Source: Escherichia phage vB_EcoM_KWBSE43-6. From it: 64,000 bases of DNA. The stretch lies in the sequence record NC_048186.1. The stretch is one strand, 5' to 3'. The notes below the pieces were generated by a model that was not told the DNA's origin, did no database searches, and saw nothing but the letters and a program-made list of their open reading frames with translations. A program made the position numbers and the translations under genes. Of this stretch, positions 9,839-48,551 are shown piece after piece (within the stretch, counting starts at the first letter, position 1; each line of letters starts with the position of its first letter).

Positions 9839-9839
9839 A

Positions 9840-10097: not shown

Positions 10098-10323
10098 TTC
10101 TGAATATTTGCGTCGAGTTGTCTTGGAACTGGGCGTGAACTATAGCGGAATGGCCAGATTATTAGATTGTTCGAACGCAGTCGGATTCTGGAAGAAAGGT
10201 TATCGTCGGATACCCAAAGCATTCCGCCGGGCGATCTTGATGCTGAAATTTATCAATCAAAAAGGACTCATGTCTGAGTTCTTGAGATATGTGGGTGAAC
10301 AGGAGAAACAAAATGGTAACTGA
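10063..10323 (+). CDS. Putative helix-turn-helix DNA-binding protein
   Basis: Start re-picked at ATG 10063 (GGAGAG RBS); HTH-like GMARLLDCSNAVGFWKKG. Confidence 0.35.
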   Translation: MASNLKTLSENDSEYLRRVVLELGVNYSGMARLLDCSNAVGFWKKGYRRIPKAFRRAILMLKFINQKGLMSEFLRYVGEQEKQNGN

Positions 10324-10975
10324 ATGGGAAAAGATGGAATATGAACGGGCGTTTAACGTTTATTGTATCTTTATGGCCATCAAACTCCATTTCACGACCA
10401 AGGATTATGATTACGGCCTCTATGGCCCGATGAGCAATTACAAATTCGAAACATTCTTTGCCAAAGAAGGTATGCGGAAACAGTTTGCTCGATTGGCCCG
10501 GCGGTTTGAGACTTCTCAAGGCGAAGTTGTTGAGAATTATATCATTGCAAATTTCATAAAGTCCCCCAAGACCTGGGTGACCACATTGTTGACTCGGCAG
10601 GCACAAGAGAATTATAACGAATACCGGAAGCTGTATGACAACTTCACATACCACTTCCTTGACTTTTTTGAAAAGAATATGATTCCGGAAATTACCGGAC
10701 GCGGTCTCACGTTCTTGGATTATCTTAAAGGCGCCGGACAGAATCATCCGGCGCTATTGACCGATATCATTATGAAAAAATATCCGATTTGGTTTCTGGT
10801 CGGACTAAACAAAATAACCGGGTTCATCGCATTTTACGATAAATTGTTGGAAGAAGACATTTATTGGAATTCAGAAGCGTTCTTGCTGAAGAAGACTGAT
10901 GCGGTTGTCCCTAACGAGAATACCGATTACGCCAAAAATAAATTCCGTGAGATGATCCTTTCCCACGGAATTTGA
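10313..10975 (+). CDS. Putative helicase loader (T4 gp59-like)
   Basis: Start ATG 10313 with AGGAG RBS; N-terminal pattern MAIKLHFTTKDYDYGLY resembles the gp59 N-domain; weak. Confidence 0.35.
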   Translation: MVTEWEKMEYERAFNVYCIFMAIKLHFTTKDYDYGLYGPMSNYKFETFFAKEGMRKQFARLARRFETSQGEVVENYIIANFIKSPKTWVTTLLTRQAQENYNEYRKLYDNFTYHFLDFFEKNMIPEITGRGLTFLDYLKGAGQNHPALLTDIIMKKYPIWFLVGLNKITGFIAFYDKLLEEDIYWNSEAFLLKKTDAVVPNENTDYAKNKFREMILSHGI

Positions 10976-10977
10976 TA

Positions 10978-12921
10978 TTACCAATCCCAAAGAATACGGG
11001 ATTTATCAGTTTGGTTCGACGGTTCCAAATTCGTGCTGTTGAAATTGTTCGTCGTGTTGACCTTTTTGGAGTTATCGACATTCTGCTGAATAGGGGCTAT
11101 TACAGAAGTCGGCGGCTGGCTATACACCGATTGTATTTTACCGATGTTATCAGCCGCCCGGCCTTGCGTCGGTAATGCCCCTCCCAAAGTCCCACCACCG
11201 ATTGAGCCATAAGCATCTTTCAGCTGAGCATTACGGTCAGTTACATTAGCCGCATCAGACGTTACACCCTGAGGGATAGGCGTAAGTGTCTGAGCGTCTT
11301 GGTTCAGACCTTCAGTCGCAGGCTGCTGGTCGGATTGTGGAGCAGGAGAATTAGTTGGTTCTTCCGTTCCAATCATCATAGACTGACGGGCTTCTGCCAT
11401 TTTCTGTCTTGCTGTTTCGCCGCCCAATGCGTCAGGGATAATGCTGACAAATTTATCAACGATATCAAACATGGCATTGACGATGGCATTAATCATGTTG
11501 AAAAACGGCTTTTTGACATTCTCAGAGAATCCTTTCTTGATGCTGTCCAGCGTTTTACTCGCGGCTGCAATCCCGTCATCAATAAACGAACTGATACCAC
11601 CAGTGACCCAATCCACCAGTTTCATAAGTTCGCTCTGAAGATTGTCCGCCAGCTTACCGGGGATCTCAGTCAATGATGTGTTCCTGGTTATCCCACCAAA
11701 CAGATCATTAGATATCCAATCCATGATAGAGTTCAGCCATTGGGCAGGTTTCTCAGATATCCAGAGAGTAAACTGTCGGAACTTTTTACCCATGTCTGTG
11801 TCAAATCCGAATATTTTGGACACCCAATCGAATAGATCGCCAAAACTACCGACTAATTCTGTTATCCCAGCCCGCACCCGGTCTACAATGGTCACGGATG
11901 CTTTCCCTAAAATCTCTTTGGCGTTGATGAATCCTTTACCGAATTCAAATACAGAAGAGATTAATGCCAGCGGGCCGACCTTTAAGAATTTCAAAACTTT
12001 ACCGAACGGACCCAGGAGCTTAACGATCCCCTCTCCCATCTTAGAGAACATACCGATGAATGCACCCACAGCCCAACCGATTGCCTTGAAAGGTTTAAGG
12101 AGAAACCCTTTGAGGGCATTGAGGCCTAACATCGCTGCTATGGCAGCACCTATTCCGGATGAGTTCTCGTCTTTCTGGTCATCATCTTTAGGAATGATGG
12201 AAGTCGCCTGAGGAGTATGTTTCCCTTCTTTCCCTTCCTCGCCCCGGCGCATCTCTTCCTTTTCACGCCATTTCTCGTTGCTGTCGAAAATACGGACAAG
12301 AGCATTAACGATATGGCCACCAGTCTTGCCTATTTTCTTCTCAATGGAAGATAACCGGACCAGTTGTTCTGAAGAGTTCTTGTCGATACCTTCTGTATTC
12401 CATCTGACTTCGTCCAGAGTGTCACCAATACGATTTAAATCCGAACTGATGCCGACAAGAGTTCCTTCCTGATTGTCCAACCGCTTGAGGCTGTCATCAT
12501 TGGCTGCTTTCAACTGATCTGATATCAGGTTCAAATATTCAGTATTGGTATCATCAGCGGGCTGGCGGATAAGGTCCCCAAGACGGTCAACCTTCTCGCC
12601 GATTTTCATCAACTCTTCGTTACCATCAACAGCAACATCAACGGTATCTTTCATCCAAATACCATAATCTCGAGTGAATATTGGACTCACTCGAGCGAAG
12701 CCATTGACGAAGTCGTTGACCGAAGGAATTTTGAACTGAAATTCTGGAACATCTTTCTGCTTTTCGGCAGTCTGTAGTTTTTCCAGATTTTTGTTCATCT
12801 TCACCAGCTGCTTGTTGGTCTCATTTTGAGCGCGGAGTTGTTTCCTCTCCATGATCTCTTTCTTGATCTTGTCAAGAACTTGAGCAACTTCAGTCTGTGA
12901 TGTTTGTGCTGGCTCAGCCAT
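10978..12921 (-). CDS. Virion structural protein, tape-measure-like (gp29-like)
   Basis: 647 aa, coiled-coil N-terminus, Gly-rich C-terminal region; sits in baseplate/tail block. Confidence 0.3.
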   Translation of the reverse strand: MAEPAQTSQTEVAQVLDKIKKEIMERKQLRAQNETNKQLVKMNKNLEKLQTAEKQKDVPEFQFKIPSVNDFVNGFARVSPIFTRDYGIWMKDTVDVAVDGNEELMKIGEKVDRLGDLIRQPADDTNTEYLNLISDQLKAANDDSLKRLDNQEGTLVGISSDLNRIGDTLDEVRWNTEGIDKNSSEQLVRLSSIEKKIGKTGGHIVNALVRIFDSNEKWREKEEMRRGEEGKEGKHTPQATSIIPKDDDQKDENSSGIGAAIAAMLGLNALKGFLLKPFKAIGWAVGAFIGMFSKMGEGIVKLLGPFGKVLKFLKVGPLALISSVFEFGKGFINAKEILGKASVTIVDRVRAGITELVGSFGDLFDWVSKIFGFDTDMGKKFRQFTLWISEKPAQWLNSIMDWISNDLFGGITRNTSLTEIPGKLADNLQSELMKLVDWVTGGISSFIDDGIAAASKTLDSIKKGFSENVKKPFFNMINAIVNAMFDIVDKFVSIIPDALGGETARQKMAEARQSMMIGTEEPTNSPAPQSDQQPATEGLNQDAQTLTPIPQGVTSDAANVTDRNAQLKDAYGSIGGGTLGGALPTQGRAADNIGKIQSVYSQPPTSVIAPIQQNVDNSKKVNTTNNFNSTNLEPSNQTDKSRILWDW

Positions 12922-17355: not shown

Positions 17356-17868
17356 TTATTTGTCTGGGTTTACGCAAAGGGGAGTTGTAGTCAGCTCGCC
17401 TTTATCATCAAAACTGTATTTCAGAACCGCATATTGGTCAACCATGCGATAGACTTCAATACCGGCATTCATCATTTCCACGATGCCCGTCGTGATCCTG
17501 TACGGTTCACAGTAGATCACTTTATCGATCTTGCCGCTGGCAATAATACGTTTGGTGCACTCAGGGCAAGGACTGTGAGTGACGAACATAACCAGACCAC
17601 ACCAATCTGCCGCATGTTGAGGTAAACGGTTCAGAGCATTTTCTTCGGCGTGAATAACACCGTCAGATACCAGCTGGCCGTCTACTTCTATTTCGCACAC
17701 ATTAGGAGCGCCGGGCGCAGTGCCATTCCAGCCAATAGCCAACGGCTGATCAACCCGAGGATCTACGATAACACAACCAACCTGGAGACGGCGGGCATAA
17801 CTGGTTTTGCCATATGCCTGGGCTGCTCTCATATGGGCAAACATCATGCGTGGCTTAATCATGGACAT
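17356..17868 (-). CDS. cd: dCMP deaminase (cytidine/deoxycytidylate deaminase family)
   Basis: Zinc-binding motifs HAEENA and PCPECTK. Confidence 0.9.
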   Translation of the reverse strand: MSMIKPRMMFAHMRAAQAYGKTSYARRLQVGCVIVDPRVDQPLAIGWNGTAPGAPNVCEIEVDGQLVSDGVIHAEENALNRLPQHAADWCGLVMFVTHSPCPECTKRIIASGKIDKVIYCEPYRITTGIVEMMNAGIEVYRMVDQYAVLKYSFDDKGELTTTPLCVNPDK

Positions 17869-19016: not shown

Positions 19017-19606
19017 AATGATTCCCCATTGTGAAGCTGTAACAGTTCTTTAAACGTAGCCGGGCGGCGTAAATGATCCCAGCTTGAGTTCAGGTAATCC
19101 GGGTTCCCTACTTTGCGGGAATGCCAATGCCCGTGAACATTATATTCCCAACGATCCAGGAGTACGGGCACATGAGTGACAATCACTTTGGAAACGCTGC
19201 CGTCACTCCGAGCCATCTTGTATTCAAACAAAGAACCGAATTTGCTGATCCATTCACTTAGGAATAACTGCATCAGCATTGAAAAACTGTCGTGGTTCCC
19301 CTGAGTTACTTTGATGTTGAAGTTGGGCCGCCAATCATCAGGAACCTTACCATGCATCTTTGGTAGGTTACGCGCCGCGCCTTCTCGCATCAGTTCGATG
19401 AACGCATCTGGGCCACCGAAGCATGTGTCGCCCGTAATGATCAAGGAATCATCCCGGCCACACGTTTGGAATATGCTGTCGATAACTGCGATGTCGTGTT
19501 CATCAACTGTTTCAAACCCACGTGATTTGGGGATCTTTTTATGTTTCAGGTGGGGATCACCCAAAAAGAAAACTTTACCCGCCATATTCTTTTCCTCTGA
19601 GATCAT
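19013..19606 (-). CDS. Calcineurin-like metallophosphoesterase
   Basis: Motifs GDPH, GDTCFGG, QGNHDS, GHWH. Confidence 0.7.
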
Positions 19607-20036
19607 TATAGAAATTGATTAACATATTGTCAGTCCATCCTGACCAGTCGAATACATCAAAATCAGCCACACCTTGGTACATATTGACGATAGCAGGCGA
19701 AAATATGACATCAACCTGATTTTTATCGTTGTCATTCACCTGAACTTTGATCCAGAACAAAGATCGGTCTTCCAGAATATGTGCCAATTTAGGATAACGA
19801 GAGGATATTTCCAATGCCCACACATCTAATATAGAACGAAAATCATCTTCCATTTTATAAATGAATGCCGTGGAAATCGGATGGCCAAGATATGGACTCC
19901 AGGATTTATATTGTGTTACTTCCTGGATGCTGGACACCAATGGTATCACCAATCCCCGCTGATATTGTGCTGACAAAGAAGGGATAGAATTAAGATATGA
20001 CAATATCTCTTCACGCTGAATCTGTGTTAATTTCAT
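19575..20036 (-). CDS. Hypothetical protein
   Basis: 153-aa ORF. Confidence 0.4.
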
Positions 20037-20698
20037 TTTAGTCCCACCTCATAACGATGACGAGTACAGGCCATACAATCGCAGTTCTTTTTCAGAACCG
20101 GATATTCACACCAGGTCATCATCCCGTAAAGAGGACGAAGGGCTTCATAAAACCAGGCTTTCTTCAACCCGATCATGGGGAACAACAATTCAGCCGGGCG
20201 ATTTTGTGGATCAGCCAACATAGCATACCCTTCCATGATCTTATTGAAGGAACGGATATACTGCAGGGCATCATCACCGTTCACATATGCCATGACATAC
20301 GTCTCAGGATAGATAGATGCAAGCTGAGTGCCAAGCAACCATATTGGGGCTTGGGCCAATGCTGAACGGAAAGGGCCAGCTGCTTCTACCTTTAATATAG
20401 GGATTTCATCATTGTCCCAATGTTGTGTTAATTCTGGACGATATTTTTCTGCCCATTGTCTGATCTTTTTCCTAGACCACATTTCACGCCGGGACTTGAA
20501 CGAGTTGTTCTCCAGGTCGCAGTAGATCGTCCGGACATAATATCCGTGAGAAAGCAACCAGAACAGCATGTATGTACTGTCAACACCGCCAGACCAGAAC
20601 AAAGTCACACTCTTATCATTGAAATGCATGGGTAACTTTTGTCCTTCCAACACGTCGCGTACAAATTCTCTGTCATTGAATTCTACATTGATTTCCAT
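20033..20698 (-). CDS. PP-loop ATPase (QueC/ExsB-like N-type ATP pyrophosphatase)
   Basis: SGGVDS PP-loop motif near N-terminus; C-terminal Cys cluster CDCMAC; about 220 aa. Confidence 0.5.
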   Translation of the reverse strand: MEINVEFNDREFVRDVLEGQKLPMHFNDKSVTLFWSGGVDSTYMLFWLLSHGYYVRTIYCDLENNSFKSRREMWSRKKIRQWAEKYRPELTQHWDNDEIPILKVEAAGPFRSALAQAPIWLLGTQLASIYPETYVMAYVNGDDALQYIRSFNKIMEGYAMLADPQNRPAELLFPMIGLKKAWFYEALRPLYGMMTWCEYPVLKKNCDCMACTRHRYEVGLK

Positions 20699-27356: not shown

Positions 27357-27983
27357 TTATAGACCAAATTTGCCCCGCCACTTTTCGACTTTGTGCTCAA
27401 ATGCGTGCTCAACTTTTATTCTAATCGATGACGGTTCTGCACAATGATAATACGTTCTTCCTTCATCAGTCCCATATTGAGGGGCGCAACCGTATGACAA
27501 TGCCAATTGAGCTGTGTATCTGATTAAAGTGCTCACCAGGAAGTTTAAATTATCGGTAGATCTTTGTGGCTGGTTTAGCAATCTGGTGATACGCCCTTTC
27601 ATATGATGGATCATAGCTAAATTCTTTTCTGGCCCTGTGGTGGTATCACAGAAAAGGTGGTCTTCAAGGGAATATTGGCGGAAATCAGAATATCCTTGCG
27701 ACAACGCCATTTGGGTTATAATTGAATCAATAATTTCATCTTTCGTCATATTACCATGGATTTGTGCATCTTTGTAATCGCAGACATACAAAAGATCAAC
27801 TGCTGAGATAATCACGTCAGCTATTTCTCCATTGAGTGGCTCTGAAGCTGCGATGCCGTGGTAAACATCGGAAAGTTCACATACTTCTTCCACCAGTTTA
27901 CAGAAGACGAAAAATGGAGAACGATCTGGATTGACCACAGTACATTCATATGACGTATTGACAATATTACGCAGAAATTTCAT
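27357..27983 (-). CDS. MazG-like nucleotide pyrophosphohydrolase
   Basis: LVEEVCELSD ... GEIADVIISAVDLLYV matches the MazG/HisE E-x2-E ... E-x2-D pattern. Confidence 0.45.
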   Translation of the reverse strand: MKFLRNIVNTSYECTVVNPDRSPFFVFCKLVEEVCELSDVYHGIAASEPLNGEIADVIISAVDLLYVCDYKDAQIHGNMTKDEIIDSIITQMALSQGYSDFRQYSLEDHLFCDTTTGPEKNLAMIHHMKGRITRLLNQPQRSTDNLNFLVSTLIRYTAQLALSYGCAPQYGTDEGRTYYHCAEPSSIRIKVEHAFEHKVEKWRGKFGL

Positions 27984-37601: not shown

Positions 37602-38021
37602 CTATTCAGCTTGCGTGTAGTTCAAATCGCCGCGCAGATCCTGAATAGGCTGGCCGCCAACTGCCATGATATAGATGGTGTTGATAGTTTCGAACCACGT
37701 CAGTTCGTTAACGTCTTTGGTGTACGGCGTCACTGGAATAGAAGTTTTGACTTCGTTCGTTTCAGTCAGCGGGTGTGCTTCAACCAGAGTAAGGATAGCG
37801 CAGCGCCCAGACGGATGGATAATACCTTCTTTAAACAACACGATCTTTTTGCGAGGATAGGATGCTTCCCCCAGGCATACGGCAAGATGGTGGATCATTT
37901 CTGGCCGGGTTAATAGAGTATCATTCCTGATGATACCTTGTTTAACAGCTGAGATAACGATCTCGTCCAGAATCGCCTGTTGTTGGTGAAGACTCATAGA
38001 TTCGGTAAGTTTTACGCCCAT
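37602..38021 (-). CDS. Hypothetical protein
   Basis: Start re-picked at MGVKLTE. Confidence 0.35.
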   Translation of the reverse strand: MGVKLTESMSLHQQQAILDEIVISAVKQGIIRNDTLLTRPEMIHHLAVCLGEASYPRKKIVLFKEGIIHPSGRCAILTLVEAHPLTETNEVKTSIPVTPYTKDVNELTWFETINTIYIMAVGGQPIQDLRGDLNYTQAE

Positions 38022-38025
38022 GATA

Positions 38026-38589
38026 TTACCCTTTGAAGTTAATCGGAGCCTGAACACCAGATTCAAAAGCTGCCTGGGTATGGCTATCACTTACAACCTG
38101 GCAGGTCTTTTCCAGATCCAGACGCGGGAAACCAAACATTCCAGCCACGATGTTGCCCGGGAACTGCTGGAGCCGGGTCTCGTACAACTGGCACGCATCG
38201 AGTTTTTTGGTCTGGCTGATACGGAATTCATCACGGCCCGCGCTGATTACGATCTGGATTTCTTTATACAGAGATGAATCGAACTGAATGTTCTGTTCCT
38301 GGATCCATTGCATCACCGCTTTGGAACCGTCGGCGCCATAGCGGCCTTCAAATGTTCCCTTGATGACTTCCTTCAACCCGTTCTTGTACATGTCCGGGAT
38401 TTGCGCCGTGTCCTGCACTTTCATAGTATAAGAACTCAGATAGTTCTCCGAGTCCTTGTTGAACTTCTTAACATTGTTCTCCAGCTTGTTAAAACCGTTG
38501 AACGTGCTGATAAGAAACCCGGCGATGATTGCGATCAAACCAACGGTAGCACCGACGACGATAAGAGAAGAACTGATACTTTTTGACAT
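38026..38589 (-). CDS. LemA-family membrane protein
   Basis: N-terminal TM helix plus C-terminal LemA signature FPGNIVAGMFGFPRLD. Confidence 0.55.
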   Translation of the reverse strand: MSKSISSSLIVVGATVGLIAIIAGFLISTFNGFNKLENNVKKFNKDSENYLSSYTMKVQDTAQIPDMYKNGLKEVIKGTFEGRYGADGSKAVMQWIQEQNIQFDSSLYKEIQIVISAGRDEFRISQTKKLDACQLYETRLQQFPGNIVAGMFGFPRLDLEKTCQVVSDSHTQAAFESGVQAPINFKG

Positions 38590-38605
38590 TTGTGTAGCCT
38601 CTTGT

Positions 38606-39697
38606 TTAGAATGGGAAACGACGATTTAGACTAAAATTATATGGCCCAGCGCCAAGATAGAATAATACACCGAACGGCACACAACCGAGTAAAGACACGA
38701 TCAGGGCTTCCCAGGTCTTCAACTCACGCCATTTCAGATAATCCATCTCCTTCATAGACACCCGGTTGTAGCCCTTGCTGATATTGGTAGCGACTTCTTG
38801 GAAGACTGCTATTCCCATGGGCTGTCCAGTAAGGGATAATCCATTGCGGGAATGCAACTCCATGTTGTTCATGCCATCTGCAAAAGATGTGCTCTTGCCC
38901 CAATTTATCTTCATATCCTTGGTGATATCGGTAACTACGATGACGTCATTCTTCTTGCCGCCCGCCCATGCATACACCAGCCCCTGGAAATATTCAATCG
39001 GCTGGCCTGAAGTTATCACCCAAACGATGTTCACCTGGCGCTCGGCACCCAGAGTTTTCAGAACGCCGTTCAAATAATCATTCCAGTAACCGACAGGAAG
39101 ATTCAAACCAGACATGTTCAAAACCCGGTTGACACGATAGTAATCATAGACCTTTGGGTACGCCGGAATATAATCTTTGAACTTCTCGGCAAACTGTTCA
39201 TCCGAACGGGAGAATAATGAATCCCTGTTTCCAAGAACGTAGTTCTGATACGGATGATCTTGTGCAGCTGGCTCCCCGATCTTCACCTGTGCCCAGCGCG
39301 GCGGCTGGCGCAAACCTTGTCGGTCTATACGCTTAATGGTCAGATCACCGACGGTCGTGTGAACATCCCAGTCAACGTCATAATCATGCTCGTCACAATA
39401 GATCGGGACACAGGACTGGTTGCCTTTACTATCCGTTGAACATGTCTGGCCGCATTGATACTGGTGCTCACACGAGACCTTTTCCCGAGTCTTGCCAGTC
39501 ACATAACCATTAAGGATTTCCACGTCAGCGGCACTCCCCAAGGAGAATGCTGCGTATGCACCCGCTTGTATCAGGCAAGACAAACCAACCCCGATAAGGG
39601 TCGTATAGACCGTCTCCTTAACGTTGTGGTCGGCCTGGTGTCTGACTATGAACGCAACCGCCATTGCCAACGGCAGGATGAAAAAGAGATAGATCAT
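38606..39697 (-). CDS. Multi-pass membrane protein (two N-terminal TM, one C-terminal TM, Cys-rich extracytoplasmic domain)
   Basis: Hydrophobic helices at both ends; Cys cluster CEHQYQCGQTCSTDSKGNQSCVPIYCDEH. Confidence 0.45.
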   Translation of the reverse strand: MIYLFFILPLAMAVAFIVRHQADHNVKETVYTTLIGVGLSCLIQAGAYAAFSLGSAADVEILNGYVTGKTREKVSCEHQYQCGQTCSTDSKGNQSCVPIYCDEHDYDVDWDVHTTVGDLTIKRIDRQGLRQPPRWAQVKIGEPAAQDHPYQNYVLGNRDSLFSRSDEQFAEKFKDYIPAYPKVYDYYRVNRVLNMSGLNLPVGYWNDYLNGVLKTLGAERQVNIVWVITSGQPIEYFQGLVYAWAGGKKNDVIVVTDITKDMKINWGKSTSFADGMNNMELHSRNGLSLTGQPMGIAVFQEVATNISKGYNRVSMKEMDYLKWRELKTWEALIVSLLGCVPFGVLFYLGAGPYNFSLNRRFPF

Positions 39698-40083
39698 AAT
39701 ACACCATCCACGAGTTGGGCTTTCGTCATACCCAACAGTTGTTCTTTGTGTTTTTCATCCGCGCCGTTGGCAACCAAGAGCGCCCAACGTTCTTCATGGT
39801 ACTTCGGGTCCATGGCTTCATCAAACGATAGGTGATGGCGAAACATGATTGAGGCCACAGAATGAAGATTGTGCGCGGTTGCTCTTTGCAAAGTCCGAGT
39901 TGCTGTGATATGCTGTTTTTGATACTCAACGCCCATAAGACGCAATTCACGAATAATACGAATTGGTGACAAATCACCTTTCTCGTAAAGTTCTTTGATA
40001 CGCGATTTCTTAGGGTGTAATTGGCCGTCTGTTTCTTTCATGAACAAATCGTACAAATATTCGACATATTCTGTGTGAGTCAT
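39694..40083 (-). CDS. Hypothetical protein
   Basis: 129-aa ORF. Confidence 0.4.
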   Translation of the reverse strand: MTHTEYVEYLYDLFMKETDGQLHPKKSRIKELYEKGDLSPIRIIRELRLMGVEYQKQHITATRTLQRATAHNLHSVASIMFRHHLSFDEAMDPKYHEERWALLVANGADEKHKEQLLGMTKAQLVDGVL

Positions 40084-40163
40084 AATTTTGATCCTTAGCG
40101 ATAAAAAGGGAACGAGCCAAATATAAGCCCATTCCCTTTATTGAAGAAATTGGTATTGCTCAG

Positions 40164-41381
40164 TTATTTCTTCATCAATGACATCAGATTAACACTCTTC
40201 CCAACAGGGGCGGTCTCCTGTTTGCGTTCAATACGCTCTTCAAGTTCCCAACGTGTTCCCTTCTGTAGATGCCAGATATGTAGGGGAACGCCCGTCTCAA
40301 AGAACACAGGCATCTTCCACTTCTGGACGCCTGGGACGTGCCCTGCGGGAGCCTTCTCACATAACAGGGTATCTGGTAGCCAAAGTGAACGCGCCTCCCA
40401 GAGTGCCGCGCAGGAGTACTCCGGCCAAATGCGTTCCATGTAGTCGATTTCGTCCCAGGTACGCTCCGCATCCCACCCGATATAACGAGTGTTCTTCAGA
40501 CGGAAGAATTTCTTCAACCAACACGCGCCAGAGGTCTCAAAGTTCAGACGGTTGATGAACGTCAGGTGACCGAATTCTTCAACGCATTCATGGAATGCCT
40601 TTTCCAAATCGGCTTCCAGGATGTCACACTCTTCATCGGTGATAGGACAGCCGTCGATCTTTTTCTTCCCGTGTTTGGTCACCCAATCATCACGGTTAGA
40701 AAGGAACGCCGCGCCGTTGCGGTTCGATTCGCTACCTTCACGGTCACGCAGCATGAAGCCAGGGACATCGATTTCCCACATGTTACCGAACACCATGTTC
40801 AGGGCTTCCAGGAAGTTCCAGGCGCTCAGACGGCCGAAGTATTTCCAGGACATTGCCGTGTCCCACAACTCAGTAAACTGGTCTTCTTTCATGGTGCATT
40901 CCAGCATCCAACGAAAAGAATCCATCTGAGTTTTACCGCCCAGCCAATCCACATAGGACTGAACACATGGGATCATCTTGGACTTGCGGTAGCGGCAATC
41001 AGTATCGAAGCGCATGCGTTCAAAGTTCAGATTATACCAGTCCGAGAAGCGCTGCATTTCTTCTTTGGTCTGCGGAGGAACCGGGAACTCAGAGTAGATT
41101 GTCCACGGGCCGATCGCATTATAGCAGCAACCCCAAAGAAACGCCATCCAGATCTTGCGCTCGATCTTTTCCAGATTGGTGAGGCCTTCTGTGACTTCAA
41201 TAGCATAATCCATCAGACGCATCTGCTGGTTGTGCTCTTCAGTATAGGACAGCGCTTCTACCCACGCCTTGAGCAGATACATCCGGTTCTCAGGCTTGCG
41301 GTAGTCAACCTTCAGATCAATCGGGTACTTCCATTGCTCAGGGGCTTTATACCCCTGCGGCATTTTAGATAAATGTGCCAT
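40164..41381 (-). CDS. Large conserved hypothetical protein (candidate DNA-base modification transferase)
   Basis: 405 aa, Trp/Cys-rich, sits beside P-loop kinase and HAD nucleotidase genes; function inferred from context only. Confidence 0.4.
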   Translation of the reverse strand: MAHLSKMPQGYKAPEQWKYPIDLKVDYRKPENRMYLLKAWVEALSYTEEHNQQMRLMDYAIEVTEGLTNLEKIERKIWMAFLWGCCYNAIGPWTIYSEFPVPPQTKEEMQRFSDWYNLNFERMRFDTDCRYRKSKMIPCVQSYVDWLGGKTQMDSFRWMLECTMKEDQFTELWDTAMSWKYFGRLSAWNFLEALNMVFGNMWEIDVPGFMLRDREGSESNRNGAAFLSNRDDWVTKHGKKKIDGCPITDEECDILEADLEKAFHECVEEFGHLTFINRLNFETSGACWLKKFFRLKNTRYIGWDAERTWDEIDYMERIWPEYSCAALWEARSLWLPDTLLCEKAPAGHVPGVQKWKMPVFFETGVPLHIWHLQKGTRWELEERIERKQETAPVGKSVNLMSLMKK

Positions 41382-41384
41382 ACA

Positions 41385-41765
41385 TTAATCCTTTTCGCCG
41401 ACGGAACTTGAAAGTTCTTCATCTCCAGGATGAGGCTGAACTGGCTCCAGTTGCACTTGATCTGCGGTGACCGGGCCGAATGCAGAGTTCCAGATATCGA
41501 CAAAGCGTTTGTCAGAAGTAACAACCCACATACGCTTGGCTTTATTGGAACGGTCAGCAATGAACGCCTGGGCATTGGCGTTAGTACGGACGAGACCGAC
41601 TTGGCGCCACTGACCAAAATCTTTAGACGCCGGGTTAGTGTTCAGCTGAAACTGTGGGATAACCCGGTTGTCTTCCGGATAATAACGGACAGCATTGATC
41701 ATCTTGGCATCGCCCTTATAATCAATAGCGATAGCCACGGCATCGCGGGGAATCAAAATTTTCAT
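41385..41765 (-). CDS. Hypothetical protein
   Basis: 126-aa ORF. Confidence 0.4.
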   Translation of the reverse strand: MKILIPRDAVAIAIDYKGDAKMINAVRYYPEDNRVIPQFQLNTNPASKDFGQWRQVGLVRTNANAQAFIADRSNKAKRMWVVTSDKRFVDIWNSAFGPVTADQVQLEPVQPHPGDEELSSSVGEKD

Positions 41766-41766
41766 C

Positions 41767-41970
41767 TCATTTCCTTAAAAATAATTTATAGACAACAGGT
41801 ATCAAGAACGATAAGAAGCCGAACCAGTAAACCACATTCATGGTTTTCTTTTCTGCTTCTGATAGATCAATGAAACCATAATGATATACTATCATGGTTA
41901 ATAATGAGGCTAAACAAGTGATCGCCCCGACCAATAAAATTGCATCCAACCACTTGTTGTTCATCTTCAT
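41767..41970 (-). CDS. Small membrane protein
   Basis: 67 aa, two hydrophobic helices. Confidence 0.35.
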   Translation of the reverse strand: MKMNNKWLDAILLVGAITCLASLLTMIVYHYGFIDLSEAEKKTMNVVYWFGFLSFLIPVVYKLFLRK

Positions 41971-42851
41971 TTCCTCAACATCATAGCCAGCACGTTAGAA
42001 CTTTTGGACAGCTGTTTCTTTTCATCAGCAGTCTTCTTGACAGTCGGGCGGCGGGTAGCCTTTTCCGGTACGCGATGCGCCAGCGGGTCTGAACCACCAA
42101 CTTCGCGTGTCATTGGATGGTCTTCGCAATACTTATAGAATTCTTTGAAGACGAACCCAGCGTCACGGACTTCATTGATGATCATGTGATGAATGGCATT
42201 GCCAATGACCCACAGCGGTGCGTCGAATGGCAATTGGGCAACTTCGCTGCCAACGCCGTTCTTTTTGTAGAGGACGTCCTGACCGCTGTATGAATCTACA
42301 ACGACATCCCAGCCCGCCGCCGCCATTTCAGATTTAGACTTTTCAAATTCTTTCTGATAAGACTCATTCCGAGTCCAGCCCGAATCCCCGGCTTCTTTAC
42401 CAGAACGCCCACGGATACGAGCATCATACTGATAACGATCCGGATACGTGAAGTACAACAGCGCCAGTTGCTCAATAGGATAATTGGCAAACAGCCATTC
42501 TGGACGCCATTTATCAGACAGCATCAACGGTTCACCCTCACAGACGAGCGTATATCCCGCGCTGAGATGTTCTTTGACCAGTTCGCGGGCGATATCACCA
42601 GAACCTGTCGCGGCATGGATAGCGTCCATCGAGGTCCACGAGGCAAGACCGGATTTGTTTGACGCAGTATACTGGCCGACAAACATTAATTTCAGTTCAT
42701 CAAAGGCCAGGCCAAACAGGCGCGTTTTATCGCCGATGGTATAAGTGACCTCGCGCGGCTCGAGGCGAGTACGCAGCCATTCTATGAACTGTACCACACG
42801 AGTGCCCTTGCCCGTGCCGCTTGTGCCTTTGATTACAATCAGTTTTGACAT
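41967..42851 (-). CDS. P-loop NTPase/kinase-like protein
   Basis: N-terminal GTSGTGKGT Walker-A-like motif; 294 aa. Confidence 0.45.
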   Translation of the reverse strand: MSKLIVIKGTSGTGKGTRVVQFIEWLRTRLEPREVTYTIGDKTRLFGLAFDELKLMFVGQYTASNKSGLASWTSMDAIHAATGSGDIARELVKEHLSAGYTLVCEGEPLMLSDKWRPEWLFANYPIEQLALLYFTYPDRYQYDARIRGRSGKEAGDSGWTRNESYQKEFEKSKSEMAAAGWDVVVDSYSGQDVLYKKNGVGSEVAQLPFDAPLWVIGNAIHHMIINEVRDAGFVFKEFYKYCEDHPMTREVGGSDPLAHRVPEKATRRPTVKKTADEKKQLSKSSNVLAMMLRK

Positions 42852-43222
42852 TAGTTGTCATCCTCAATACGCCATGATACACCGCCAAGCCAAGGCGACC
42901 AGAATACAGCGACCTTCTGGCGACCATATTCTTCGAATTTCACTTTATAACGGTCATCGAAGTCATAGAAAATTTCATCTTCTTCAGAACGTAATAAAGA
43001 ATCTACTGCTAATGAATGAAATTTCTGAGCTGCTCCAACGGGAGTAGGAGTTTCCATCCCCCTGATATAATTGTTTACAGCCGAAACGATCGGATGTACG
43101 ATGCTTTTCGCGGAAACTACAGGCTGAGTTGTAACTTTCAATTCGTTAGACACTTCAGACTCCTTGACGGACAAATTGGTAATGTGCAACCAGGCGGTCA
43201 ACGACTTCTGTAAAATTTTCAC
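42851..43222 (-). CDS. Hypothetical protein
   Basis: 123-aa ORF. Confidence 0.35.
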   Translation of the reverse strand: MKILQKSLTAWLHITNLSVKESEVSNELKVTTQPVVSAKSIVHPIVSAVNNYIRGMETPTPVGAAQKFHSLAVDSLLRSEEDEIFYDFDDRYKVKFEEYGRQKVAVFWSPWLGGVSWRIEDDN

Positions 43223-43946
43223 GCAGATAGTCGAAGTGGTTGCGGCCTTCTACTGGTTTAACATATATCATATTTTCTGAATCCGAAAGATCCAGTTTTT
43301 CATAATTCCCCTGAGGAACGAAGATGCTGAAAACATTGTTCCAGATGCACGGGTCGACATATTTCGGATTGTCGTCAATCAAAACATCGCCAGCAACCAT
43401 GTGCTTTTCATCCGTGCTGATGAAGCCATTGAAGATGTTCGGGAACTTGCCATACACGAACTGACGTTTGCTGCGTTCGTGCTCGGGTTCACATTTGGTG
43501 ACAGCAACAAATTCCACCATTTCAAACTTCATGAGCAGCGCATCATGCAAGTTGTTCAAGAACTCTACCGCACCGGGCAACGGCTGCATACGGGAGTACA
43601 GATCAGGTTGGCGCCAAAAGTCCATCGGGTCGCGTCCGTTTGACATATAATGGGTCTTACCGCCGATACTGACATATGAATGTGACCATGCCGGATGAGC
43701 ACGTTCACGCATCAGGATTGCCAAATCACCCGCATGGTTCATATAACATTGCTTGGTGATCGGCTGGAATTTAGCAGGGCCAACAATCCCGTCCGGGAGA
43801 CTTGCTTGGGCTTCCAGGTTTCCGTCATTAAACCATTTGACCCAAGGCGATAGACTATCGACGATTGTCAGATCAACGTCCACCAAAACCCGGTACAGGC
43901 CTCCGACCTTTGAGTTCATATCGTATAGGCAAGTCAGGTTGTTCAT
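43155..43946 (-). CDS. HAD-superfamily 5'(3')-deoxyribonucleotidase-like protein
   Basis: Motif I VDVDLTIVDS (DxDxT) and C-terminal VLIDDNPKY. Confidence 0.4.
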   Translation of the reverse strand: MNNLTCLYDMNSKVGGLYRVLVDVDLTIVDSLSPWVKWFNDGNLEAQASLPDGIVGPAKFQPITKQCYMNHAGDLAILMRERAHPAWSHSYVSIGGKTHYMSNGRDPMDFWRQPDLYSRMQPLPGAVEFLNNLHDALLMKFEMVEFVAVTKCEPEHERSKRQFVYGKFPNIFNGFISTDEKHMVAGDVLIDDNPKYVDPCIWNNVFSIFVPQGNYEKLDLSDSENMIYVKPVEGRNHFDYLRENFTEVVDRLVAHYQFVRQGV

Positions 43947-44302
43947 TTATCTTCCTCCACTTTATCATATCCTGTCGCTTTACAACCATCAGCCTGGCAG
44001 TCGCCATACAGGACAACCATGGAGTCTTTTACGAAAGTAGAACAATGATACAGCTCCGTCGTTGGATCGCTGTCATCGTAATTGCAAACGGTCTGGATCG
44101 GGCCGGGAGTAGTACCCTGGAGGGCGGCATGTGCTTTAACCATGTCATCCATTTTGGTCTGAGCCTGGTCTTGGGTGAAGTCCGGCCCGCTGAGATCTGG
44201 TGTGTCCAAGAGAGCAGAGCAAGCAGACAGAGACACTGACAGAGTGAACGCCAGCATGATTTTGTAGAACAGAACGGTTTTATTGAGTTTCATCTTAATC
44301 AC
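43943..44302 (-). CDS. Putative lipoprotein
   Basis: Signal peptide with lipobox LSAC; Cys-containing mature domain. Confidence 0.45.
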   Translation of the reverse strand: MIKMKLNKTVLFYKIMLAFTLSVSLSACSALLDTPDLSGPDFTQDQAQTKMDDMVKAHAALQGTTPGPIQTVCNYDDSDPTTELYHCSTFVKDSMVVLYGDCQADGCKATGYDKVEEDK

Positions 44303-44359
44303 CTATTTTTGTCAAAGGGAAACAACAAGGGGAATTATATCCCCCTGTCGGTTATTGAA

Positions 44360-44647
44360 TTAGTGAGAAGCCAAAGAATTATTGTGGTCTACCATAAATT
44401 GGTAGTTGCCACCGAATTTTTTGACCGCATCAATCTCGTGTTGTCCCCATTGATATTGGTAACGCTGGAACAATTCTCCTGGCACAACTTCAATCTCAAA
44501 CTCAAAGAAGCAGTCTTGGCAGAGAACTTTCCCTTCTTCAGTGAAAGATTTTGCTATCAAAAGCGTCACGTCCGGGCCGGGTCTTCCAAATATATACAAA
44601 TATGGATTCCCCAAAACCACTTCATTACCACGTTGATCAACAATCAT
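44360..44647 (-). CDS. Hypothetical protein
   Basis: 95-aa ORF just downstream of polymerase gene. Confidence 0.4.
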   Translation of the reverse strand: MIVDQRGNEVVLGNPYLYIFGRPGPDVTLLIAKSFTEEGKVLCQDCFFEFEIEVVPGELFQRYQYQWGQHEIDAVKKFGGNYQFMVDHNNSLASH

Positions 44648-44650
44648 TTT

Positions 44651-47647
44651 CTACCCCTTTTTACCCATCATCGCTAATAAATTGACCCGACGTTTGTGAG
44701 ACCAGCCAACGACCGTCAGTATAGACTGGATCGGTTCGATGAATGACTTCTCAAATGCCGTGTTGTAATCCACCCATTTCGCCATATCCAATTCTTCGGG
44801 GAAGAACTCTGGATAGGCGAAATAGTTCTGACCGAATGGATTACCAGCTTTCAGCAGAACAATGTTGACTTTATCGCCAGATTCTATTAACGGTAAATCG
44901 AGTTCTTCATGTTTCTCCACCAGGCGATTGTAGCCGACGCATGCCTTTGCAGCAAAGTGCGCCCCAGAGATAAAGGATCCGTCAGGAGCCACGCACTTCT
45001 CAATATCAGAGACACCTGATGCCTTCGCAATATCATCGACGCTCAGTTTCATGTACTCATCTTTATACGTCTTGATGAGGTCTTGGACTTCGCTTTCCGT
45101 GCCTAAAAGAATGCGCTCATAGCACTTGATGAGACGTTCACGACACCATTCTGGCGTTGTTGATTTACGCGCCTCAAGACCTTTGAATTTGATCTTCGGC
45201 TTCTCATATTTGATGCCTTCACTGTCATAGACAGCCATGCAATACATCTTCTTGGCACGCCATACTGCAGCAGACGCAATGACTTCACGCTCCCAAACCA
45301 TGCGCTGTTCGTAGCCATTCATCGTATTGCAGAGCATCTGCGCCCATTCATTGGTCTTGGGCTGGTAATTCTCCTTGATCCATTGGTCGATATTATCAAC
45401 GAGTTTGTGGTGATCAGTTTCTCCTTCCCACAATTTCTTGACCAGGCGCTCGATACAGATATAGTTCGAGTCCGTGTCCCCCGCGATAACATAATCCAGG
45501 CCGCTGGTCCCGCACAATCCGTTAAGATAATCGTCAGTGTAACGTTTGTTCCACTTATTGATCAACTGCCCTGAAGTTGTAATCGCTTCCGCAATGTTGA
45601 GGTTAAAGTATTCTTTAAACCAGACGTTAGAGATTGCACCATAACCTGCGTTCATCAAGATCTTCAGACCTTGCTGTAACGTGTCTTGGGCAACGCCAAG
45701 GTCTTCCCATTTGTGCATCACTTCGGACAGGTGATCAAGGTCGATGTTTTTGTGCTCTTCATACCAGTCTTGGTCAAAGTAGCGGGATTTCATCGCGGAT
45801 TCAAGGTGGAAGTCACCCTTAGACATTTCCTTACACCAGCCCGCCCATTGCTCATACTTCAGACCCTTGGCCTTCTCACCTTTACGGTCAGCGTAAATGC
45901 CGCGCATGATCTCAGAGAGGAAGGACATTTTCTCATTACTGAAGAATTGAACGTTTGGTGTAAACGACACGTTGTAACGCACGAGGGTTTCAAACCGGAA
46001 TTCACCCAGGGCAACCAGTTCATCTACAACCTGTAGGCGTTCATCAATCGCGCGGAGCAGTTTGTCATGAAGATTCTTCATATGGCGACGTTTATGCATC
46101 GGCGTCGTCATATCATTCATCTTGACAGCAAGCTCTTCACACATGGCTTCAATGATTTCACGACGGGTGTGTTTATCACCGATAATCGTTTCAGGCCCGA
46201 GGTTGTACTGCTGAATGATGTGTGGGTACAGGGAGTTCAAGTCCTCTGAGAAGACCCAATAATAGATCCCTGGCGCCACTTCCATGACATATGCGCCTTC
46301 AAAGTTTGTCGGCCCATCATAGACGCGCTGGACTTTGGGAACAATCCCCTTTTCGTACAGCTTGTAATAACACATGGCCAACCATGGCGCTACCGTGCCC
46401 AAACCGTCTTCAAAGTTAGATTTGGTGCGATACGCCAGGACAAACATCAGCTGAATGAGACGCAGTTTTTGTTCCAGACGCCAGACGAGTTTGACGTCCT
46501 TAATACCATACCGGGTGTGCTTACAATAATCGTTGAAATACAGATCAAACAGTGATTTGCTCTCACTGTAATCCATCTTCTTCTCACCGAGTTCGCAATA
46601 TGCAATCCAGTCCAAAGAATATCTTTCACGTGTGGTGTACGTGTGCTTCTTATAGACCTGCAGGTAATCCAACATAGGACAACCAACGAACTGATAAGTC
46701 GTGATGTCACCTTTCTTATCCCGGATGATGCGCTTTTTTATCTTACCCCAAGGACTCAGGCGATTAGTGTCGGCTTCACCCAATACTTGCATACAGCGTT
46801 CTACCAGATACGGGCTATCGAATTGCTCAATGTTCCAGCCTGTCCAACCGTCAAAGGCCCGCGCTTCCCAGTAATCAACAAATGACCGCAGCAGATCTTG
46901 TTCGGTGGTGAACTCTTGATATTCTACTTCCAGACCACCGATCTCTTCATCATTTGGGTCATATTTGAACTTATGGCGATCCTTAGAACACGGCATCCCC
47001 CAGACCATATATTTGTTATTGGTCAGATCCTGGAGCTGAATGAGCGTAATCGGGAATGCCGCATTCATGTTCTGGGTGATCTTACCATTTGCGTCAATAA
47101 TGGGGAACTGGTCGGTCACGTTGTTGGAGATAAAGGAGCCGGGGAAATGCTCGCGGACGAACGCATGGTTGGCCAAGATACGTTTATGGAACTGACGGAC
47201 GCGCGCCGCGCTCCCTTTGAACGTCTGTAGTTCTATCGTCGGGTGCGGGAATGGACCTTTAGTCATCTGCCCATCGACCCATCCTGCAGAGAACACTTCG
47301 ATATCAAGATTGGCGATATGAATGTTGTTGTAATCTGGCTGAATCGTACCGGGGAAACTGTGGGCGATGAATTGGTAGGCATAGTCAGTCTGACCGTATA
47401 TCGCCGCGCCTTCTACATCCTTGTATTCCTCCATATAGTTGTCGGCGTCACGCATAGACGCAAACTTTTTAGAAATCAGAGGTTCGTTCAACAGGCCGAC
47501 TTTTTCAACATTAGAATAATCAGCCGTGGGTAAATACAGAGTGGGTTCGAATTTCTTTTTGAGCATGCGACGGTTGCCCATGTCATCTGCAATTCGAACT
47601 AACAGGTCGTTGCCTTGCCGGGCGACGTTAGTATAGAAAACAGTCAT
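44651..47647 (-). CDS. 43: DNA polymerase, family B (T4 gp43-like)
   Basis: N-terminus MTVFYTNVARQGNDLLVR resembles T4 gp43; YGDTDS polymerase motif; start re-picked at ATG 47647 with GGAG RBS. Confidence 0.95.
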   Translation of the reverse strand: MTVFYTNVARQGNDLLVRIADDMGNRRMLKKKFEPTLYLPTADYSNVEKVGLLNEPLISKKFASMRDADNYMEEYKDVEGAAIYGQTDYAYQFIAHSFPGTIQPDYNNIHIANLDIEVFSAGWVDGQMTKGPFPHPTIELQTFKGSAARVRQFHKRILANHAFVREHFPGSFISNNVTDQFPIIDANGKITQNMNAAFPITLIQLQDLTNNKYMVWGMPCSKDRHKFKYDPNDEEIGGLEVEYQEFTTEQDLLRSFVDYWEARAFDGWTGWNIEQFDSPYLVERCMQVLGEADTNRLSPWGKIKKRIIRDKKGDITTYQFVGCPMLDYLQVYKKHTYTTRERYSLDWIAYCELGEKKMDYSESKSLFDLYFNDYCKHTRYGIKDVKLVWRLEQKLRLIQLMFVLAYRTKSNFEDGLGTVAPWLAMCYYKLYEKGIVPKVQRVYDGPTNFEGAYVMEVAPGIYYWVFSEDLNSLYPHIIQQYNLGPETIIGDKHTRREIIEAMCEELAVKMNDMTTPMHKRRHMKNLHDKLLRAIDERLQVVDELVALGEFRFETLVRYNVSFTPNVQFFSNEKMSFLSEIMRGIYADRKGEKAKGLKYEQWAGWCKEMSKGDFHLESAMKSRYFDQDWYEEHKNIDLDHLSEVMHKWEDLGVAQDTLQQGLKILMNAGYGAISNVWFKEYFNLNIAEAITTSGQLINKWNKRYTDDYLNGLCGTSGLDYVIAGDTDSNYICIERLVKKLWEGETDHHKLVDNIDQWIKENYQPKTNEWAQMLCNTMNGYEQRMVWEREVIASAAVWRAKKMYCMAVYDSEGIKYEKPKIKFKGLEARKSTTPEWCRERLIKCYERILLGTESEVQDLIKTYKDEYMKLSVDDIAKASGVSDIEKCVAPDGSFISGAHFAAKACVGYNRLVEKHEELDLPLIESGDKVNIVLLKAGNPFGQNYFAYPEFFPEELDMAKWVDYNTAFEKSFIEPIQSILTVVGWSHKRRVNLLAMMGKKG

Positions 47648-47665
47648 TGTATTCTCCAGGTTATC

Positions 47666-47680
47666 CGTGCCGTTAGCACG
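47666..47680 (-). promoter_or_regulatory. Hairpin just upstream of polymerase RBS (candidate translational operator)
   Basis: CGTGC-TAACG-GCACG stem-loop about 15 nt upstream of the GGAG RBS in minus sense. Confidence 0.25.
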
Positions 47681-47725
47681 TTCCCATAATTTAGCCGAGG
47701 AGGGTTCATTGACCAAGGAGTTTAT

Positions 47726-48298
47726 ATGGCAATCCCCTTGGTAAGCATGATTCCTGGCGCTTTGAAACAGCTCTGGAATCTGGGAACTGATTTGATTCAA
47801 TATAAGCGGGAAATTGTAAGCGCCAAGCACGATGTCAAGTTAGAAGCGATCAAATCGTCTTCCGACTGGGAACTATCTAAGATCACAGAAGTTGGTGGTT
47901 CTTGGAAAGATGAATTCTGGACTATCGTTCTTGCTATCCCCGCGATCCTCGTTATGTTAGCTCCAGTTGTGGAACTGCTTTTGTTCCCCGGTGAATATCA
48001 TAAAGGGGATTTCATCAAAGCAGTAGTCGGTGGCATGCAAGCCCTGGATACCGCGCCTGATTGGTATACTGCTTCATTATTGACAGCAATTAGTGCATCA
48101 TTCGGTATCAAAGGCTACAACCACTTTAAAAGCAACAGCCGCAAGGCGCAAGCTGTCGATGCCCTTAAACAATTCGGCGTCAAAGTGGTTAGCAAAGATC
48201 CCACTGTTGTTACTCAGTCGGGTTCTCCCGATCTTGAGTCTGCTCCCCCAGCTGGGTCTACTGCGACCTCTGGTGCGTGGCCTGATCTGAAGAAATAA
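47726..48298 (+). CDS. Membrane protein
   Basis: Strong AAGGAG RBS; hydrophobic helices; divergent from polymerase gene. Confidence 0.5.
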   Translation: MAIPLVSMIPGALKQLWNLGTDLIQYKREIVSAKHDVKLEAIKSSSDWELSKITEVGGSWKDEFWTIVLAIPAILVMLAPVVELLLFPGEYHKGDFIKAVVGGMQALDTAPDWYTASLLTAISASFGIKGYNHFKSNSRKAQAVDALKQFGVKVVSKDPTVVTQSGSPDLESAPPAGSTATSGAWPDLKK

Positions 48299-48304
48299 GG
48301 TTCA

Positions 48305-48328
48305 AGGGGCTTCGGCCCCTTTCTTTTG
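48305..48328 (+). terminator. Rho-independent terminator
   Basis: AGGGGC-TTCG-GCCCCT then TTCTTTT. Confidence 0.6.
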
Positions 48329-48338
48329 GTGTTAAGGA

Positions 48339-48551
48339 ATGGATGTGGTAAACAAGAGATTGCTCGTCACCCAGGGCGGGGCGACGATAGTAAGAGGCCG
48401 GATTTATGAACAAACTAAACTCGGCTCACACAAAACTAGACTGAAAGTGAAAGCGCCAGATGGTGGTTGGCCCACAAATGTCATTGTTCCCGATGGTCTC
48501 TTAGAACGAGGGTTCGCGACATATCGAGGGGCAGAGTTCAAAATTTATTAA
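48339..48551 (+). CDS. Hypothetical protein
   Basis: 70-aa ORF. Confidence 0.3.
   Translation: MDVVNKRLLVTQGGATIVRGRIYEQTKLGSHKTRLKVKAPDGGWPTNVIVPDGLLERGFATYRGAEFKIY

Follow-up and report, generated by a model that had tools for sequence, protein, structure and literature searches.

The 64,000-nucleotide stretch of Escherichia phage vB_EcoM_KWBSE43-6 (NC_048186.1) analyzed here, referred to below as the window, carries on its minus strand, at positions 40164–44302, seven tightly packed open reading frames (ORFs), as seen in the ORF list of the window. From the upstream end, these encode a DUF7292 protein, a protein of the haloacid dehalogenase (HAD) superfamily, a DUF7254 protein, a P-loop kinase, a 67-aa ORF, a 126-aa ORF, and a 405-aa transferase. 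A first-pass annotation had proposed three of them, with products of 405, 294, and 263 aa, as a gene set for DNA base hypermodification, and all three are found on the minus strand exactly where it had placed them; the four small ORFs interleaved with them, of 126 aa, 67 aa, ~100 aa (DUF7254), and ~116 aa (DUF7292), were absent from its list. As judged from the sequence, the block is very probably the core post-replicative part of the pathway by which Ackermannviridae phages make 5-(2-aminoethoxy)methyl-2'-deoxyuridine (5-NeOmdU).

Organization of the block and its core enzymes

The Pfam matches of the 405-, 294-, and 263-aa proteins all exceed the curated cut-offs, and since their E-values are 1.8e-58, 3.9e-138, and 8.7e-9, respectively, and the block matches 278 phage records, the three ORFs are considered real genes rather than chance ORFs. 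The genome of Salmonella phage ViI served as the reference for orthology, with the 'gp' numbers of Lee et al. corresponding to the orf00xxx notes of that record. The order of genes from the DNA polymerase through DUF7292, HAD, DUF7254, kinase, small ORF, and 126-aa ORF to the transferase is identical in the window and in ViI.

The seven genes look like a single transcription unit that is translationally coupled and bounded by hairpins, because consecutive genes overlap at their stop and start codons or are separated by 1–4 nt, a ribosome-binding site of the GGAG/AAGGA type stands ahead of each start, and a terminator-like hairpin is predicted on the minus strand at either end. The upstream hairpin (44323–44350), which separates the putative operon from the DNA polymerase region, has a stem of 11 bp and a T-rich tail behind it (-18.9 kcal/mol, z -4.0), and the downstream one (40105–40139), just beyond the transferase gene, has a 14-bp stem followed by UUUUUA (-21.5 kcal/mol, z -2.9). 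A promoter scan of positions 38000–48500 returned 19 matches, which is not above the shuffled background of 14.4 +/- 4.9, and no promoter is claimed.

The 294-aa protein (41967–42851, minus strand) is a 5-hydroxymethyl-2'-deoxyuridine (5-hmdU) DNA kinase of type 2 (5-HMUDK) by its match to the Pfam family PF18747 (HMUD2), which scores 460 bits against a cut-off of 25 and covers positions 1–297 of the 298-position profile. The P-loop motif read in it earlier is present as a Walker A sequence, GTSGTGKGT, at residues 9–17. Over its full length, the protein is 71% identical to ViI gp243, its orthologue, which occupies the same genomic position. ATP-dependent phosphorylation of 5-hmdU in DNA has been shown for ViI gp243, ViI gp67, M6 gp54, and others (PMC8989533), and the 294-aa protein is accordingly annotated as the enzyme predicted to phosphorylate 5-hmdU in DNA at its 5-hydroxymethyl group; the profile match, the identity, and the synteny with gp243 thus uphold its proposed role as a DNA kinase. 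By sequence, it has no match among PDB chains even at an E-value of 10, and no NCBIfam model matches it, including those for guanylate kinase. The same kinase domain also matches positions 204–496 of phrog_15209, a 497-aa family labeled 'endonuclease', so that some phages fuse the HMUD2 kinase to an N-terminal domain of ~200 aa.

The 405-aa protein (40164–41381, minus strand) belongs to the Pfam family PF18724 (ADDT), with 198 bits against a cut-off of 26.2 over positions 2–228 of the 232-position profile, and is 85% identical over its full length to ViI gp247, its orthologue, an amino acid:DNA transferase (AADT) of what was formerly called aGPT-Pplase clade 2. Its richness in tryptophan and cysteine, remarked on in the first-pass annotation, is real, these residues making up 5.4% and 2.7% of the protein versus 1.4% and 0.9% for a comparison set of 11 other large proteins encoded in the window. 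The catalytic motif ETSGAC contains Glu282, Thr283, and Cys287, which do not vary among 24 homologues with identities as low as 40%, and the active-site segment NFETSGACWLKKFFRL is identical in ViI gp247. For gp247, it has been established that free L-serine is attached through its side-chain oxygen to 5-phosphomethyl-2'-deoxyuridine (5-PmdU), yielding 5-O-serinylthymidine, that a conserved cysteine and a neighboring glutamate are essential, and that the evidence supports a covalent adduct at C6 and an exocyclic methylene intermediate (PMC8989533).

The fold of the 405-aa protein had been described as unknown, a statement that does not hold, since the crystal structure of a family member, PaMx11 gp46, is available (PMC11472151). 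This enzyme, the 5-PmdU glycinyltransferase PUGT (8z2m, 8z2n; PMC11472151), shares with the 405-aa protein the Pfam family, an all-helical fold of the two-bundle, glycosylase-like kind, and the Glu-Thr...Cys motif. In its structure, Glu243, Thr244, and Cys247 coordinate a metal and clamp the target base (PMC11472151); these residues align with Glu282, Thr283, and Cys287 in a weak profile alignment (hhalign E-value 0.058, probability below 1%) that was used for motif correspondence only. The AlphaFold (AF2) model of the 405-aa protein, built from a 24-sequence alignment, is all-helical with a mean predicted local distance difference test (pLDDT) score of 89.4, and the top three matches retrieved with it from the PDB by Foldseek are PaMx11 gp46/PUGT (8z2n, 8z2m), with probabilities of 0.99–1.0 and template modeling (TM) scores of 0.54–0.64 on the target; the AGOG DNA glycosylase is found at rank 5. 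This match of a modeled fold is indecisive alone, yet consistent when combined with the profile match and the orthology. The two proteins nevertheless differ in several respects: PaMx11 gp46 has 292 aa compared with 405 aa here, there is no detectable pairwise sequence similarity (a BLASTP comparison was not significant), and the glycine-binding residues Trp146 and Lys150 of PaMx11 gp46 align, again weakly, with Leu185 and Asn189 of the 405-aa protein. Whereas PaMx11 gp46 attaches glycine through its nitrogen, the ViI-type enzyme attaches serine through oxygen, and downstream tailoring involves a flavin adenine dinucleotide (FAD) lyase and an acetyltransferase in PaMx11 but a decarboxylase dependent on pyridoxal 5'-phosphate (PLP) in ViI-type phages. 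No NCBIfam model matches the 405-aa protein. Based on the ADDT profile, the identity and synteny with gp247, and PUGT as the top fold match, the 405-aa protein is predicted to be a serine:DNA transferase acting on 5-PmdU in DNA, and the transferase role suggested for it earlier is thereby supported.

Outside the block, a PLP-dependent enzyme is encoded at 51300–52670 on the minus strand, 88% identical over 396 aa to ViI gp226, a PLP-dependent decarboxylase that converts 5-O-serinylthymidine to 5-NeOmdU (PMC8989533). This identity marks it as an O-serinylthymidine decarboxylase orthologue and agrees with the earlier proposal that a PLP enzyme tailors the appended group. Its match to the PALP family is weak (E 2.2e-5, 24.4 bits, under the 35-bit cut-off), and no NCBIfam model matches either this protein or the HAD protein. 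The interval 51300–52670 is the maximal ORF (456 aa), the conserved part of which starts near 52490; where translation really begins is uncertain. Insertions were considered as the cause of the longer ORFs of the polymerase (1059 aa) and the PLP enzyme (456 aa) and were rejected, as the excess is N-terminal in the maximal ORFs and reflects the choice of start codon.

Proposed route to 5-NeOmdU

In the proposed pathway, a dCMP deaminase would supply dUMP, which a ThyA-like hydroxymethylase would convert to 5-hmdUMP; a dNMP kinase, together with host kinases, would then phosphorylate this further to 5-hmdUTP, the form that the phage polymerase would incorporate in place of thymidine. In DNA, the 294-aa kinase would place the gamma-phosphate from ATP on the hydroxymethyl group, resulting in 5-PmdU. 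Cys287 of the 405-aa transferase may then attack C6 of the base with the assistance of Glu282, whereby the phosphate would be expelled and an exocyclic methylene left, to which the side-chain hydroxyl of free L-serine would add to generate 5-O-serinylthymidine. Finally, the PLP enzyme would decarboxylate this intermediate to 5-NeOmdU. The three DNA-level steps have been shown for the ViI orthologues and are transferred to the window by orthology.

The window contains orthologues of gp226, gp243, and gp247, i.e., three of the five proteins used in the lysate reconstitution of the ViI pathway. The concept put forward in the first-pass annotation, in which a 5-hydroxymethyl-pyrimidine is hypermodified by a DNA kinase and a transferase, is thus substantiated by profile matches, identity, and synteny to ViI enzymes that have been reconstituted in vitro (PMC8989533), and that annotation correctly re-derived, from raw sequence, a pathway that had already been published. 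Phage 0507-KN2-1 was listed by Lee et al. in 2018 among the ViI-like 5-HMUDK phages predicted to contain 5-NeOmdU (PMC5889632, Table 1), and the modified base replaces ~40% of thymidine in ViI, CBA120, and others (PMC5889632). A 2024 review of the Ackermannviridae describes the modification genes as conserved across the family. In the Taipeivirus phiHS2, which has the same gene set, 5-NeOmdU accounts for 16.4% of dT by high-performance liquid chromatography with tandem mass spectrometry (HPLC-MS/MS), and the DNA resists 9/10 restriction enzymes (bioRxiv 10.64898/2026.05.19.726188).

Compared with ViI, a Kuttervirus, the window shares the kinase (71% identity), the transferase (85%), the PLP enzyme (88%), and the order from polymerase to transferase (PMC5889632; PMC8989533), along with thyA-like, dnk, dUTPase_2, dCMP deaminase, and MazG genes. 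It differs in genus (Taipeivirus) and presumed host (Klebsiella), in a 67-aa ORF that has diverged past detection by tblastn, and in having the homologues of gp67 and gp160 beyond its limits. The phages phiHS2 and 0507-KN2-1 belong to the same genus as the window, and the latter has 97% DNA identity across the block; the window represents a different isolate.

The HAD protein and the competing explanations

The 263-aa protein (43155–43946, minus strand), an orthologue of ViI orf00239 (70% identity), resembles 5'(3')-deoxyribonucleotidases of the NT5C type. Its match to PF06941 reaches 35.9 bits against a cut-off of 24.8 and covers only residues 109–197. Motif I of the HAD superfamily, DVDLT, occurs at residue 23, and motifs I–IV are kept in 20 homologues, in which Asp23, Asp25, Thr27, Lys160, Lys181, Asp191, and Asp192 are invariant and position 150 is either threonine or serine. 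The AF2 model (pLDDT 87.9), which has a Rossmann-like HAD fold with a cap, retrieves 3bwv, 1z4i, 1q92, and 2jao, representing an S. epidermidis protein, human mdN, and mouse cdN, as the best Foldseek matches (E 1.7e-8 to 1.6e-7, probability 1.0), and by its motifs and modeled fold the protein is predicted to be an intact NT5C-type deoxyribonucleotidase. The HAD core fold and motifs I–IV are common to it and to the S. epidermidis protein 3bwv and the human mitochondrial (mdN) and cytosolic (cdN) deoxyribonucleotidases (NT5C, PF06941). Relative to these enzymes, the phage protein is only 16–19% identical, has a TM-score of ~0.5 on query length, and contains ~70 extra residues, distributed between a C-terminal helix and an insertion that follows motif I.

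Homologues of the HAD protein are almost all found on contigs of ~150–160 kb, within the Ackermannviridae range. In Vibrio phage 207E48.1 and Pseudomonas phage Cygsa01, the transferases of which are only 49–55% identical to that of the window, a HAD-like gene (26–32% identity, tblastn) is located 1–2 kb upstream of the kinase-transferase pair. Both of these phages hold genes for a HAD-like protein, an HMUD2 kinase, the transferase, and a gp160-like aGPT-Pplase1 within ~5–6 kb (Cygsa01, 4855–10156; 207E48.1, 4479–10235), whereas gp160 lies tens of kb from the kinase-transferase cluster in ViI and the Taipeiviruses, which suggests an ancestral compact cluster that was later dispersed. The closest transferases from outside the Ackermannviridae, 41–42% identical to that of the window, occur on two metagenomic phage contigs in which the transferase follows ParB_N and Tet_JBP genes; one of the two (cluster at 7757–11179 of its contig) contains a weakly P-loop kinase-like ORF between Tet_JBP and the transferase, and the intervening ORF of the other (7860–11077) has no Pfam match. 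Such contigs would represent a dioxygenase route to 5-hmdU that feeds the same transferase chemistry. An NT5C gene was not found beside the transferase in three non-Ackermannviridae contigs, namely these two and one with an HMUD1-type kinase, and the idea of the HAD protein as a universal partner of ADDT enzymes was rejected on this ground.

The dioxygenase route would make 5-hmdU from thymidine that is already in DNA, for which engineering of the nucleotide pool is unneeded; the presence of a HAD gene next to the transferase in Ackermannviridae-like phages, and not in the dioxygenase clusters, therefore fits a role at the level of the pool. Most likely, the HAD protein works on the nucleotide pool, for instance as a dTMP/dUMP nucleotidase, which is our inference. 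The HAD protein is not supported as a required component of the pathway: the reconstitution of the ViI pathway in lysates used only gp67, gp160, gp226, gp243, and gp247, and not the HAD orthologue (PMC5889632), and the gene is absent beside ADDT genes in other lineages. Within the gene set proposed in the first-pass annotation, the kinase and the transferase stand, and the membership of the HAD protein, which had been included with them, is putative. It is possible, if rather doubtful, that the HAD protein, and/or the DUF7254 protein and the 126-aa phrog_4163 protein, are unrecognized accessories of a ThyA-route hypermodification system. One version of this could be a dTMP/dUMP-specific nucleotidase that biases the pool toward 5-hmdUTP, and another could be a factor that determines at which thymidine positions, and at what proportion of them, 5-NeOmdU is formed.

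Several points weigh against the assignment of the block to the 5-NeOmdU pathway. The activities of the enzymes and the use of serine as substrate in this phage are assigned through orthology, and the dUMP-hydroxymethylase activity of the ThyA-like protein is putative. The Foldseek E-values of the transferase model to PUGT are only 0.04–0.08, and the transferase has no sequence-level match to any PDB chain, even at an E-value of 10. By tblastn, neither the paralogous ViI kinase gp67 nor the aGPT-Pplase1 gp160 finds a homologue within the window; since the gp67 gene adjoins thyA in both ViI and 0507-KN2-1, synteny places its homologue just left of the window start. The HAD protein is connected to the pathway by synteny only.

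Among the rival explanations, an ordinary nucleotide-salvage module, consisting of a guanylate or other nucleotide kinase and a generic deoxyribonucleotidase next to an unrelated 405-aa protein and without any DNA modification, would suit the label 'guanylate kinase' that RefSeq and PHROG attach to the kinase and the GenBank label 'hypothetical' of the 405-aa protein in the records listed. It is extremely improbable in view of the full-length HMUD2 match of a kinase that lacks any guanylate-kinase match in NCBIfam and is 71% identical to gp243, an enzyme that phosphorylates 5-hmdU in DNA (PMC8989533), and in view of the ADDT match of a 405-aa protein 85% identical to gp247. A pathway of the same type could also end in another product, with a nucleophile other than serine or a different later tailoring, so that the base would not be 5-NeOmdU; ADDT enzymes do vary in their substrates, which are glycine in M6 and PaMx11, putrescine in PhiW-14, and serine in ViI (PMC8989533), and 15% of the transferase residues differ from gp247. 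However, the active-site segment is identical in these two closely similar transferases, the decarboxylase partner closely matches gp226, the ORFs of the window that were scanned showed no additional tailoring enzyme, and the DNA of the Taipeivirus phiHS2 holds 5-NeOmdU by MS/MS, all of which makes a different product very unlikely.

The remaining explanation concerns the HAD protein, which might participate directly at the DNA level, for example by dephosphorylating 5-PmdU and thereby setting the partial extent of modification (16–40%). Its co-transcription with the kinase and the transferase, as deduced from gene layout, its persistence within 1–2 kb of these genes even where the transferase has diverged to 49–55% identity, and the intactness of all its catalytic motifs would be compatible with such a role. 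Its nearest structures, however, are mononucleotide 5'(3')-deoxyribonucleotidases, the ViI lysate reconstitution proceeded without its orthologue (PMC5889632), clusters of the ParB/Tet_JBP type lack it next to the transferase, and no DNA-binding feature was identified in the protein; a direct role on DNA is thus regarded as unlikely.

Neighboring genes, relatives, and annotation

The other genes named in the first-pass annotation, i.e., a ThyA-family enzyme, a dNMP kinase, a dCMP deaminase, two MazG-like proteins, and the PLP enzyme, were all recovered in the window. The ThyA-family gene (3–998, plus strand) is truncated at its 5' end by the window edge, and its product matches PF00303 (E 2.2e-15) and is 76% identical to ViI gp66 (thyA, Vi01_060c). 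Its score of 59.7 bits, against 327 for the thymidylate-synthase equivalog cut-off, is far under such cut-offs, as expected for a divergent paralogue, and the enzyme is predicted from sequence to be a dUMP hydroxymethylase supplying 5-hmdUMP. It is followed on the plus strand by a dNMP kinase (995–1564; phrog_139 E 1.1e-43), orthologous to ViI dnk and 87% identical to gp65, and by an all-alpha NTP pyrophosphohydrolase of the dUTPase_2/MazG-like type (1561–2112; PF08761 E 9.8e-8; 66% identity to ViI gp63). The dCMP deaminase (17356–17868, minus strand; PF00383 E 1.2e-16), which would supply dUMP, is 69% identical to its ViI counterpart, and the second MazG-like pyrophosphatase (27357–27983, minus strand; phrog_1247 E 2.3e-37) is 55% identical to ViI gp11 and has no Pfam match. 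Between the dUTPase_2 and uvsX-like genes lies a phage ACT-like domain protein (2112–2630, plus strand; PF24021 E 3e-81), which shares only 41% identity with the corresponding ViI protein, compared with 66–87% for its neighbors, and is thus an unusually fast-evolving member of the cluster.

As for the small genes of the block, all of which are on the minus strand, the 126-aa protein (41385–41765; phrog_4163 E 2.6e-68) is coupled between the kinase and the transferase and is 62% identical to ViI gp245 (orf00245); it has no Pfam match and no meaningful PDB sequence match. The 67-aa ORF (41767–41970; phrog_4514 E 7e-32) occupies the position of ViI orf00244, to the product of which (gp244) it has no tblastn match at E<1e-3; two hydrophobic stretches, seen by eye in its translation, indicate that it is likely a small membrane protein. 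The DUF7254 protein (42851–43153; PF23912 E 5.7e-49; phrog_3911), an orthologue of ViI orf00240, has ~100 aa when read from the GTG at 43153, which is preceded by an AAGGAG ribosome-binding site, the maximal ORF extending to 43222; its counterpart is unannotated in the RefSeq record of 0507-KN2-1, and it has no meaningful PDB sequence match. The DUF7292 protein (43943–44293; PF23964 E 5e-52), encoded by the first gene of the apparent operon, has ~116 aa from the ATG at 44293, the position at which its tblastn alignment to ViI gp237 (58% identity) starts, and displays, by eye, a lipoprotein-like signal sequence with an LSAC lipobox. Two likely envelope proteins, namely this lipoprotein-like protein and the 67-aa ORF product, are thus interleaved with the hypermodification operon, with no obvious link to DNA chemistry.

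At the DNA level, the block is 96–97% identical to Klebsiella phages cp21, 0507-KN2-1, Menlow, Magnus, UPM 2146, and others, and 80–90% identical to ~230 Ackermannviridae phages of Salmonella, Escherichia, and Dickeya. Phage 0507-KN2-1 is the type species of the genus Taipeivirus, and the window is collinear with it from thyA through the tail genes; by sequence, the window is assigned to Taipeivirus (Ackermannviridae).

Since the enzyme functions have been published since 2018–2021, the value of the window lies mainly in the correction of annotations. In addition to the HMUD2 kinase, which is labeled 'guanylate kinase' in public records, ViI gp67 (38203–38865) and PaMx11 gp49 (19218–19787), both experimentally proven 5-hmdU DNA kinases, are labeled 'terminase small subunit', as is the gp67 homologue of 0507-KN2-1 (orf32, 1–340), and the transferase is a 'hypothetical protein' wherever it is annotated among the best 40 of 377 matching phage records. 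The modification protects Ackermannviridae DNA from many restriction enzymes, which bears on the therapeutic use of Klebsiella Taipeiviruses and on the sequencing and cloning of such DNA.

Elsewhere in the window, a 221-aa ORF (20033–20698, minus strand) gives a borderline match to QueC, a PP-loop ATPase (22.0 bits, cut-off 22); no other deazaguanine genes were seen, and its counterparts in 0507-KN2-1 and ViI bear the RefSeq label 'QueC-like queuosine biosynthesis'. Seven tRNA genes (Gln-ttg, two Tyr-gta, Asn-gtt, Ser-tga, Ser-gct, and Met-cat) are located at 54308–55995 on the minus strand, and beside them, at 56000–58650, ~2.6 kb contain only short ORFs (<110 aa) and have no Rfam match; a comparable unannotated gap of ~4 kb occupies the matching place in ViI.

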